From Longimicrobiales bacterium (GTDB taxonomy: Bacteria > Gemmatimonadota > Gemmatimonadetes > Longimicrobiales > Gaopeijiaceae): a stretch of 64,000 bases of DNA. Each line of letters begins with the position of its first letter. Position 1 is the first letter of the stretch. Below the pieces are notes generated by a model that made no database searches, had not been told where the DNA came from, and saw nothing but the letters and a program-made list of their open reading frames with translations. The translations under genes were made by a program, and so were the position numbers. Shown piece after piece: positions 19,565 to 22,741 of the stretch. The stretch is from contig CBDAON010000004.1 of the NCBI GenBank assembly GCA_965198065.1, positions 128,001-192,000 of the forward strand. Direction: 5' to 3'.

Positions 19565-19764
19565 CGCTCTGACGTTACGAGTCCGACTCCACACACAAGA
19601 ATGGTGGACGGCGGGTCGATCTGTCAGGAGACGGGTCCGCTCATCGATGTTCTGACTGGGAATTATAGCGAATGGTGCCCAAGCCTCCCTTGCAAACCAC
19701 CCCCCCCCTGGGCACTATATTTATAGTGCCGGGTAGAAGCGATAACCGCAAGGGAGCTAATAGG

Positions 19765-20703
19765 ATGGCGAGCGAGAAAGGGCCAGGGAAGAGCTACCGG
19801 AAGGGACTGTCGCTGATCGAGGCGTTCGACAGGTTCCCCGACGATGCGGCGGCCGAGCAGTGGTTCGCCAAGGCCCGCTGGGGCGATGAGCCCGCCTGCA
19901 CGCACTGCGGAAGCGTGAACGTCCAGACCGGCGCGAAGCACAAGACCATGCCCTTGCGGTGCCGCGATTGCCGGAAGCGGTTCAGTGTCCGTATGGGTAC
20001 CGCGATGCAGGACTCCAACATCCCACTTCGCAAGTGGGCGATCGCGGCCTACCTGATGACCACGAACCTGAAGGGCGTGTCTTCCATGAAGCTGCACCGG
20101 GATCTGGGAATCGCTCAAAGCTCCGCCTGGCATATGCTGCACCGGCTACGCGAGGCGTGGGCGCATGAGGGTGCGACCTTCGCCGGTCCCGTCGAGGTCG
20201 ACGAGTGCTACATCGGCGGGCTCGAGAAGAACAAGCACGCCGTCAAGAGGGCGCACCTGGGGCGCGGCCCGGTGACCAAGACCGCCGTCGTGGGCGCGAA
20301 GGACCGCCCGACGAATCAGGTCGCGGCACGCGTGGTCGAGGCTACCGACAGCCCGACGCTACAGGGTTTCGTGCAAGGCCGCATCGTGGATGGAGCCAGA
20401 GTGTACACGGACGAAGCGAGGGCGTATGACGGCCTCGCCAATCGGGAGAGCGTAAAGCACTCGGTGTCGGAGTACGTGAACGGGCAGGCCCACACGAACG
20501 GTGTCGAGTCCTTCTGGTCGATGCTCAAGCGCGGCTACCACGGCACCTACCACAAGATGTCCCCGAAGCACCTCCAGCGGTACGTCAACGAGTTCGCCGG
20601 CCGCCACAACGTCCGGCCGCTCGACACCATCCAGCAGATGCACTCCATCGTGCGCGGGCTCGAAGGCAAGCGGCTCCGGTACCGGGACCTGGTCGCCGAC
20701 TGA
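19765..20703 (+). CDS. IS1595-family transposase
   Basis: Zn ribbon CTHC...CRDC, VEVDECYIGG, VYTDE, HTNGVESFWSMLKR and YVNEFAGRHN. Confidence 0.95.
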   Translation: MASEKGPGKSYRKGLSLIEAFDRFPDDAAAEQWFAKARWGDEPACTHCGSVNVQTGAKHKTMPLRCRDCRKRFSVRMGTAMQDSNIPLRKWAIAAYLMTTNLKGVSSMKLHRDLGIAQSSAWHMLHRLREAWAHEGATFAGPVEVDECYIGGLEKNKHAVKRAHLGRGPVTKTAVVGAKDRPTNQVAARVVEATDSPTLQGFVQGRIVDGARVYTDEARAYDGLANRESVKHSVSEYVNGQAHTNGVESFWSMLKRGYHGTYHKMSPKHLQRYVNEFAGRHNVRPLDTIQQMHSIVRGLEGKRLRYRDLVAD

Positions 20704-20724
20704 CACACCTGGCCGGCGGTCTGG

Positions 20725-20880
20725 CTAGAACCCGATCCTGCGCGCCTCTCTTTCCTCTTCCTCTCGCTGTTTGGTCTCTGCCCACCGCATCTCATCAAGA
20801 ACTTTGAGATCGGACATTTCCTCGAACATCTCCAGTAGCAGCTTCCCGAACCGGCCCGGTTGATTCTTGTGCTTCTCCAT
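20725..20880 (-). CDS. 51-aa small protein ending in RRIGF (not in ORF track)
   Basis: MEKHKNQPGRFGKLLLEMFEEMSDLKVLDEMRWAETKQREEEEREARRIGF*. GAGGA RBS 7 nt upstream. Confidence 0.55.
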   Translation of the reverse strand: MEKHKNQPGRFGKLLLEMFEEMSDLKVLDEMRWAETKQREEEEREARRIGF

Positions 20881-20888
20881 GGTACTGT
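20860..20888 (+). promoter_or_regulatory. candidate sigma70 promoter
   Basis: TTGATT-17nt-TACTGT with an extended -10 TG. Confidence 0.45.
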
Positions 20889-20894
20889 CCTCAT

Positions 20895-20985
20895 GGCGTC
20901 AGGCCGCAAAGCGGCCCTGTCTCCCGCCGCTGTGAACGGCGAGTGACTGTTTTGGGGCCCCCGGGCGAAATCCCGGGGGCCTTTT
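20895..20985 (+). ncRNA. candidate ~90-nt structured small RNA
   Basis: GTCA/TGAC closes hairpins GGCCGC-AAA-GCGGCC and CGCCG-CTGTGAA-CGGCG, followed by a terminator. Confidence 0.45.
20956..20985 (+). terminator. rho-independent terminator
   Basis: GGCCCCCGGG-CGAAAT-CCCGGGGGCC-TTTT. Confidence 0.75.
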
Positions 20986-21027
20986 GGCATCAGCAAGCTA
21001 AGTGACTGCTTGCCTTGGGTCCATTTC

Positions 21028-22062
21028 TCAGGGCAAGATCGTCTCCCCGTTCCAGTTGTCGGGGAAGGGCTGGTAGCTGACGTGCGGGTAAGCGTTCGGA
21101 GGTGCCACCTGGGTCGGACCGTCCAGGTGGTCGATGAGGGTCCAAATCGCGTCGACACGGATCCCGAAGCCCAAGCTACCGAGACTGATCTGCACGATGT
21201 CACCAGCTGTGTCCCTGACTTCGGCTTCGATGGCTGAATGATTCAAGCCGACGATCCAACCGTTGTGATCGAACACGGGACTGCCGCTCGTGCCACCCGT
21301 CACATCGAAATCGTACTGTAGCTGTACATGCGGGGTTTCTCCCATCAGCCGCATGGCGCTGACCACTCCAGCCTTGAACGTAGCTGTGATTCTTACATCC
21401 GCGGCTTCGCCGGTGGATTCATTCTCACCGGGGAACCCTAGCGTGCCGATGGGCTGGCCTACACTGATTGCGTCGGCATACTCTCGCGGTAGAAGATTGA
21501 AGAGAACCGGCAAATCGCCCTCGATGTCCACAAGTCCGACGTCTTCTGAGTAGGGTGTCCCGTCGTAAGCGGGGTGCTTCCAGTACCGGTCGTGATTGAC
21601 CCAGTAGGCTTGGCCGTCGAAAGTGGTGCCGGCCTGGACGACCAAGAACCTGGGATTGCGATCCGCCCATTCATCGAGGACCTCGAGCATCCCGTCGACA
21701 CAGTGTGCGTTCGTCCAGATCATGCTTGTGTAGTAGGCTGCGAAGGCGCTGCAATAGTTGAGGAAGCGCGACCGACCGTCCTGGGGGCTCGTGTAAAAAA
21801 ACCCGAGCAGGTACGTGGTCTTCTGGATTCTGTGCTCGGTGAGCACCCTGCCCCAGTCCAAGGGGTCGCCCTCGGGGCCCTGGGGGCCGGTGCCGCCCTG
21901 TGGGCCCCCGGGGCCCTGTGGACCTTCCGGGCCCGTGCCTCCGGTGATCCCCTGCACACCCTGCGGCCCGGTCGCGCCTTGTGGGCCTATGGGTCCGGGA
22001 TCGCCGGTGCATCCGGCAATCAGAAAGATGGTGGCCAGCGTGAGTGCGCTGCAGCGGTTCAT
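21028..22062 (-). CDS. lipoprotein with collagen-like stalk and trypsin-like serine protease domain
   Basis: Lipobox LIAG-C, 16 Gly-X-Y triplets, catalytic motifs TNAHCV / EDVGL / GGTSGSP. Confidence 0.9.
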
Positions 22063-22414
22063 CGTGCCCTCCCCGAGATGGTGGGGTCCACCAACGCACG
22101 GAGCACACACGAGGAAGGGCCTGCCTCTTCACCCGGGAGTTCAGGAATGCTTCCGCTTGTCGATGACCGATGTTGGGATGACGACCCGGAGGTGCCGGGC
22201 CGTTGTCGCCAAGTCACGAGGGAACGTGCGAGGCTCGCTTATTCGCCCTCCCCCTTGGGACTGCGGGAGCTACCCGCGTGGAACGCCCTCGGGATCTACA
22301 GGCTGTTGTATTCAGCGAGCGACCCGACAGAAACCGGGTCCCTCGACTTGACGACAATGACACCATAGACTTCGATTGTACCGAACGCAACCACGCACCC
22401 AATGGCGGAGACCG

Positions 22415-22597
22415 ATGACTGAATCCAAGAAAGCAACGAAGCCCGCCAGCCCCACCCGCGACGAGCACTTCCCGCACATCGACGCGACACCCGAGCAGCT
22501 GGCCCAAGCCCTGATGCGGACGAAGCCCCGCAAGCTCGACGAATGGGACTACATGAAGGATACTAGCAACCCCTCACCGGAGTCCGACGAGCCGTGA
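22415..22597 (+). CDS. 60-aa small protein ending in the IS1595 right IR
   Basis: MTESKK...PHIDATPEQLAQALMRTKPRKLDEWDYMK. GGAG RBS. Stop codon overlaps the IR. Confidence 0.55.
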   Translation: MTESKKATKPASPTRDEHFPHIDATPEQLAQALMRTKPRKLDEWDYMKDTSNPSPESDEP

Positions 22598-22741
22598 GGC
22601 TTGGGCACCATTCGCTATAATTCCCTTCTGACTCCTGTCAATGAGTGGCTCGACCTGTATCGCTGAGGATCGGCGACGATTCAGATTGGGGGCCTAGAAG
22701 GGCAGGGTGCTGACCCTATATGCACCCTATCCATATCAGGA

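Follow-up and report, generated by a model that had tools for sequence, protein, structure and literature searches.

Does the short interval behind the transposase of an IS1595 element hold an antisense RNA that regulates a small protein? The question was raised by a prediction, made from the letters of the DNA alone, for positions 20725-20985 of the stretch analyzed here (64,000 nucleotides, called the window below, to which all coordinates refer unless another contig or locus is named). The original prediction described a promoter, a segment folding as a three-way junction and a hairpin with a U-tract on the plus strand, and an unannotated small gene on the minus strand. It proposed that the RNA controls the gene, in the manner of a type I toxin-antitoxin (TA) system or of phage c4 RNA, or else is a transposon-associated noncoding RNA. 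Our best explanation, which we hold tentatively and at a little less than an even chance, is that an orphan 51-codon cargo gene with its own folded leader is damped by a cis-antisense RNA. The conserved RNA of this element lies elsewhere, in a module of its own (22190-22360), and is predicted to control a secreted protease cargo.

Results

An intact IS1595 element with passenger genes

The interval does lie inside an IS1595 element, as predicted. This element is intact, measures 2,968 bp (19658-22625) and carries passenger genes. It is bounded by perfect 30-bp terminal inverted repeats (19658-19687 and 22596-22625) and flanked by an 8-bp target duplication, TTCTGACT; a duplication of this length is a trait of the family. 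The family assignment draws on these ends and on the presence of a DDE_Tnp_IS1595 transposase with a zinc ribbon, a protein of 312 aa encoded on the plus strand at 19765-20703 (PF12762, E 1.3e-37; PF12760, E 7.3e-07). The main cargo, on the minus strand at 21028-22062, is a lipoprotein with collagen repeats and a trypsin-like protease domain (PF13365, E 2.2e-12; PF01391, E 7.9e-06). At the right end the plus strand encodes a 59-aa protein (22418-22597) whose small family is frequent at the ends of IS1595 elements (tblastn matches in related IS loci, best E 1e-05); its ATPE-like core recurs at such ends, and it matched nothing in Pfam or PHROG. The closest transposase found, 81% identical, carries a different cargo, a ClpP-like peptidase gene (L397:614-1498, genome G358) whose family we take to be of the SDH_sah type. 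Elsewhere in the present genome the left 650 bp of the element recur as a 99%-identical copy (G000:C4:1503308-1503954), which is cut inside the transposase and abuts a CRISPR array of 24 repeats. The module of small ORF and hairpin occurs a single time in this genome.

Two weak promoter-like sites face each other across a predicted leader

The letters of the predicted plus-strand promoter are all present: TTGATT at 20860-20865, a 17-nt spacer ending in TGG, and TACTGT at 20883-20888. Transcripts usually start 6-8 nt after the -10 box, and the predicted start is near 20895. About 97 nt lead from this site to a GC-rich hairpin with four U (20954-20985, the hairpin itself at about 20954-20983, -26.6 kcal/mol), and the four T are found on the plus strand only, again as predicted. 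To judge from these sequence features, the hairpin is likely to be an intrinsic terminator on the plus strand and the first hairpin of the leader on the minus strand. The two are the sole extended-promoter site and the strongest U-tailed hairpin of the element. The promoter is weak: it agrees with the consensus at 7 of 12 letters, with the TG in addition, and is absent from the list of a stock promoter scan. The terminator, with its four U, fails the stock scan's 5-T rule. For a grade of site defined by at least 4 of 6 letters, a spacer of 16-18 nt and TGnTAnnnT, criteria that were set after the sites had been seen, there are 70 examples in contig C4 of this genome. When the element was shuffled 300 times, 10% of the shuffled sequences had such a site, and one lies antisense at 1 of 457 gene starts.

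To the predicted layout we add a second promoter-like site, TGGACC-17-TAGCTT, on the minus strand (20995-21023, with the -10 box at 21000-20995). No other minus-strand sequence of the element reaches this grade, and the site is also weak, with 7 of 12 consensus letters. From it the mRNA of the small protein would begin near 20988, on the far side of the hairpin, with a leader of 105 nt before the 51-aa ORF. The two facing sites bracket 20895-20988, a shared stretch of 90-95 nt. The chance that a site falls within 20 nt of a given point is about 2% (5 sites in 5,936 strand-bases of the element), a figure that was calculated post hoc.

No plus-strand terminator comparable to the one at 20954-20985 was found in 53 other IS1595 downstream regions, and the terminator therefore belongs to this cassette and not to transposase units generally. 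Promoter-terminator units in 87 IS downstream regions numbered 3 on the plus strand versus 3 on the minus strand. A small ORF together with such a unit was seen in 1 of 158 downstream regions, that of this element.

The candidate antisense RNA (20895-20985, plus strand) would comprise two hairpins and the terminator. As a whole it folds better than shuffled sequence (z -3.4, with 2 of 300 shuffles as good), and the terminator is the main contributor to this score. Without it, the middle segment gives z -1.7 on the plus strand versus z -4.1, equalled by 0 of 300 shuffles, on the minus strand, which is that of the mRNA. The leader was predicted to be complementary to the RNA, and for its upstream part this is correct, although the complementarity is trivial because the two are read from opposite strands. 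With a start near 20895, however, the RNA would miss both the RBS (20888-20892) and the ATG (20878-20880) and leave them uncovered. When folding was computed with the leader either blocked or free, parts of the stretch from the Shine-Dalgarno (SD) site to the ATG were paired in both cases, so that no clean switch was seen.

A cis-antisense layout is plausible, and it could work as follows. IS1595 would carry a real 51-codon gene that faces the transposase and would be transcribed from its own weak promoter (21023-20995) through the folded leader. The facing promoter and the hairpin would together yield an RNA of about 90 nt complementary to that leader. We infer that either promoter fires. Damping would then result from a duplex on the upstream leader, by way of decay or of a block at a standby site, and from promoter interference, rather than from covering of the RBS. 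The hairpin may in addition stop transposase read-through.

A rival account, which we consider nearly as likely, takes the 51-aa gene for an ordinary small passenger whose leader is structured. The plus-strand promoter would then have arisen only as a side effect of the start codon and SD spacer, the hairpin would end transposase read-through, and no discrete RNA would be made. The overlap between the ORF start and the plus-strand promoter had been pointed out in the prediction and is real: the TG and the -10 box, read on the opposite strand, form the start codon and the spacer between the SD site and the ATG, and for this reason the promoter match is possibly inflated. A site that scores 7 of 12 and escapes a stock scan, a middle segment that folds better as mRNA than as antisense RNA, and an RNA that has no homologue (see below) would all be expected of such a passenger. 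What this account leaves unexplained is the rarity of antisense sites of this grade at gene starts, together with a terminator that other IS1595 copies lack at this place.

The 51-codon ORF is likely to be a gene

The predicted ORF was found at 20880-20725 on the minus strand, unannotated, with a GAGGA SD site at 20892-20888, 7 nt before the ATG. It ends in RRIGF, a tail that we take to resemble the ends of ORF6N proteins. Its codon score of 0.14 was reached by 0 of 2000 shuffles and by 1.1% of shifted frames. Among real genes this score ranks low, with 82% of 3000 real segments scoring higher, and in-register antisense frames of real genes equal it in 13% of cases. The in-register plus-strand frame opposite the ORF is broken by a stop. 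On account of its SD site and codon bias the ORF is likely to be a real gene. For the protein (P0001), AlphaFold run without an alignment gives two helices (pLDDT 77.9). A small helical accessory protein is more likely than a toxin. The protein had been called unlike classic type I toxins, rightly so, since its sequence is charged and not of the small hydrophobic membrane-spanning sort.

We consider it unlikely that the ORF is untranslated and merely noncoding filler between two convergent genes. The 13% of antisense frames that score equally would fit this idea, as would a low Atlas recognition score and the want of a homologue or of a Pfam or PHROG match. It is at odds with the correct spacing of the SD site, with a codon score above all 2000 shuffles, with the stop in the in-register plus-strand frame, and with the recurrence of small convergent ORFs at the same position. 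Among 158 regions downstream of IS1595 transposases, 21 have a small convergent ORF with an RBS directly behind the transposase (15 of 87, a set that includes this element's own, and 6 of 71); the sequences of these ORFs are mutually unrelated, and some are probably spurious.

A number of these ORFs (in loci L121, L122/L124, L135, L178, L193, L207 and L271) have a shared leader in which a -10 box is followed by a GC hairpin, AAC/ACATCAC, AGGAG and the start. The leader of the 51-aa ORF was considered for this hairpin-AACCAC-AGGAG class and rejected, a profile of 8 leaders giving no match. L271 also has a weak Rfam match to sar RNA on the plus strand (1830-1888, 25.3 bits versus a cut-off of 43). 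At L141:1400-1560 a transposase and a small convergent ORF are followed by a plus-strand TTGACA-17-TACAAG promoter with three hairpins and then by a cargo under an Xcc1-like leader of the kind described below. The layout is similar to that of the present module, but the sequence is unrelated and the RNA is divergent from the ORF. Behind IS1595 transposases at L185 and in the present genome (G000:C3, below 59394) there is a plus-strand promoter with a hairpin-ended segment of 90-120 nt; the gene that follows on C3 looks DUF3800-like to us. An origin of the 51-aa ORF as a relic of a transposase N-terminus was rejected (profile of 76 N-termini, 0.5 bits, equalled by 57 of 500 shuffles).

Neither the protein nor the RNA has a homologue in the collections searched

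Searched against 5.8 billion proteins of 28-90 aa and against 1.84 billion representatives of any length, the 51-aa protein returned no sequence but its own. It had no match in the Atlas, in Pfam or in PHROG and was absent from 50 of 50 IS-rich genomes. A weak match in L221 (E 0.028) was discarded, since the frame there continues beyond IGF and lacks a matching start. Conservation of the ORF and covariation of the RNA were two of the three signs by which the prediction was to be judged, and the first was not found in these searches. At the DNA level, the module was found in 0 of 100 relatives, in no plasmid or phage record, and in none of 80, 105 and 88 related loci.

The RNA fared no better. 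Rfam returned only chance-level matches for 20895-20985, the best at 22.7 bits versus a cut-off of 90. A covariance model built from this one sequence, using the predicted three-way structure, recovered no second copy in 53 genomes, and in 96 + 77 sources (173 loci) no match went below E 1.4. As no search gave an RNA homologue, there is no covariation to test. In one study, DNA contigs from two samples extend over parts of the module; they are identical to it there and consequently give no variation. Several candidates were set aside: those from viral contigs (three pattern designs and a hairpin word) had chance context only, matches of 19-32 nt in 9 of 50 genomes showed no similar module at the 8 of 11 loci examined, and a match in L129/L130 lies in a coding region. 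Neither 20895-20985 nor the leader is a degenerate copy of the Xcc1-like RNA (2.9 bits on the plus strand, none over the leader on the minus strand).

Among the matches listed in the literature searches, for which subscription papers and preprint supplements were outside the scope, none describes this module or the one at 22190-22360 in IS1595. If the antisense RNA is real, it would add to the mobile-element cassettes in which a small protein is under cis-antisense control, a known kind. Having no relatives, the cassette says little in general.

Comparison with known antisense systems and folds

The symE/SymR pair resembles the predicted arrangement in that a short cis-encoded RNA lies opposite the 5′ end of a gene for a non-hydrophobic protein, the antisense promoter overlaps the ORF, and there is an association with mobile elements (excerpts of PMC1891008 and PMC4147584). 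SymR differs in overlapping the start codon and RBS (excerpts of PMC4147584), which the candidate RNA would not do. There was no match here to the SymE family or to SymR in Rfam, and the protein has 51 aa and two helices. Antisense pairing confined to the upstream leader is known from tisB/IstR-1, zor-orz and dinQ-agrB, where, as proposed for our locus, the RNA pairs within a long, folded 5′ leader ahead of the RBS. In these systems, however, the toxins are hydrophobic, the genes divergent and the complementarity limited (excerpts of PMC4147584), whereas at our locus the overlap would be complete, and the protein is charged.

Might the locus nevertheless be a type I TA system that stabilizes the element, with a toxin acting through its C-terminal IGF on ClpP? 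We think this very unlikely. An antisense promoter partly inside the ORF recalls symR (excerpts of PMC1891008), and hydrophilic type I toxins are known, but the candidate RNA misses the RBS and start codon that SymR covers (excerpts of PMC4147584). The IGF tripeptide is the loop by which Clp ATPases dock in the pockets of ClpP, yet a single grafted IGF was only a weak ClpP activator (excerpts of PMC8745299). The 51-aa protein matches no toxin family and, in contrast to symE, shows no spread as a family. A search of 1.28 Mb of related loci gave no other convincing small protein ending in IGF, and a literature search on the name of the IGF motif found no paper. The type I analogy finds no support at 20725-20985, where the RNA would leave the RBS and start codon free and no family was found for the ORF.

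Less probable still is a stand-alone, conserved three-way-junction noncoding RNA of the transposon. The geometry of promoter and terminator would suit such an RNA, and IS1595 elements do hold other RNAs (tRNA matches in L142 and L293). The predicted junction, however, has -19.3 kcal/mol versus -25.2 for the best fold of 20893-20953, and is thus worse by 5.9 kcal/mol. Its closing stem has a pair probability of at most 0.01 and its third stem one of 0.14, the Rfam score is far below the cut-off, and the junction model found no second copy. For the same reasons a C4 RNA at 20895-20985 is disfavored, Rfam giving no match. The three CUGU repeats were dismissed as pairing seeds, since 44% of shuffles contain at least one 4-mer in three copies, and all but one of the three repeats are paired. 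The c4-like logic finds no support at this segment, but both this idea and that of a transposon noncoding RNA fit the minus strand at 22190-22360.

A conserved Xcc1-related RNA precedes the protease gene

When the rest of the element was compared with 80 metagenomic IS1595 loci, a noncoding match was revealed on the minus strand at 22190-22332, 1.3 kb from the small-ORF module. By pattern, alignment and covariation, this leader of the protease gene is a conserved, covarying RNA related to sRNA-Xcc1. The exact pattern was found in 99 stretches of the genome collection (about 230 estimated). Among the 80 matches listed are Alpha- and Gammaproteobacteria, Acidobacteria, Chloroflexi, Gemmatimonadota, Latescibacterota and others, including several lineages that are sponge-associated by name. 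The RNA is present in 20 of 80 and 19 of 88 IS1595 loci, and an IS1595 transposase lies within 2.5 kb in 17 of the 52 copies with full flanks. This genome has four copies, and 1 of 60 relatives has the RNA. In an alignment of 80 of 99 non-redundant copies, 89% of cells pair. Of 25 pairs, 13 change on both sides, including all six of the central helix, a result equalled by 1 of 500 shuffles. Conservation of the loops is partly by construction, because most copies were selected by a loop pattern.

An ORF follows within 90 nt in 80 of 85 copies, and by a crude rule 47 of these 80 ORFs are signal-peptide-like, versus 118 of 536 genes of this genome. A promoter-like site stands about 25-31 nt upstream in 47 of 85 copies; in this element it is TTGCGT-17-TATGGT (22390-22362, minus strand). 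The first 16 nt or so of the predicted transcript pair with the 3′ arm of the RNA (cognate -20.9 versus non-cognate -9.5 kcal/mol). In 79 of 88 other copies tag and partner co-vary, the cognate pairing outranking those with 20 random partners, and three control pairings were flat. In this element, whose copy was missed by the tag pattern, the 5′ tag at 22360-22338 is complementary to 22224-22200 of the conserved RNA, with a duplex of -30.8 kcal/mol. A trans pairing of the Xcc1-like RNA with the segment at 20895-20985 was rejected, being no better than in shuffles (54 of 200 and 113 of 200).

Eight of 12 copies match the Rfam model of sRNA-Xcc1 (RF02221) from end to end, with scores of 24.5-29.9 bits that stay under the cut-off of 53, and the copy in this element gives no match at E≤1. 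Available excerpts describe sRNA-Xcc1 as an 88-nt RNA verified by Northern blot (PMC2996969) that lies upstream of symE in Xanthomonas integron cassettes (10.1101/2025.06.18.660453) and upstream of an ORF6N gene in APSE phages (10.1101/2020.03.17.996009). Shared with it are the outer stem, the arm with the GAAUA/GAAUA internal loop, the side hairpin, mobility and the position upstream of a cargo gene. The present RNA differs in its length of about 120-140 nt versus 87, in an extra GUAGCU hairpin, in a cargo of mostly secreted proteins and in a U-tract found in 4 of 85 copies. It resembles C4 RNA of phages P1 and P7 in being a three-way RNA embedded in a larger transcript and in having a variable segment that is complementary to the 5′ part of that transcript (excerpts of PMC5320573). 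Rfam gave no C4 match for 22190-22360, and no second co-varying downstream target was found.

The Xcc1-related leader, a broadly spread and strongly co-varying RNA before exported proteins, is the more useful by-product of this work. Its predicted self-pairing with the 5′ end of the transcript suggests that the cargo downstream may be under the control of sRNA-Xcc1 itself, an RNA described as trans-acting. One further reading is as a whole extremely improbable: in these bacteria IS1595 elements would be modular carriers of RNA-controlled cargo, with two antisense switches here (the widespread c4-like leader of the Xcc1 type on the secreted protease and a new convergent-promoter switch on the 51-aa protein), and the free IGF tail of that protein would deregulate or block host ClpP, making it an ADEP-like type I toxin by which the host becomes addicted to a simple IS.

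A paralogous collagen-trypsin lipoprotein is encoded elsewhere in this genome (G000:C4:1733345-1734574), in a cassette for which no flanking inverted repeats and no small-ORF module were found. Its Xcc1-like leader is shorter and scores 45 bits; it is also the only RF02221 match in the genome. Finally, tRNA or tRNA-like genes were seen in or beside IS1595 cargo at L142:5818-5914, at L293:82-155, near 2712100 on contig C4 of this genome (G000:C4) and in L399.
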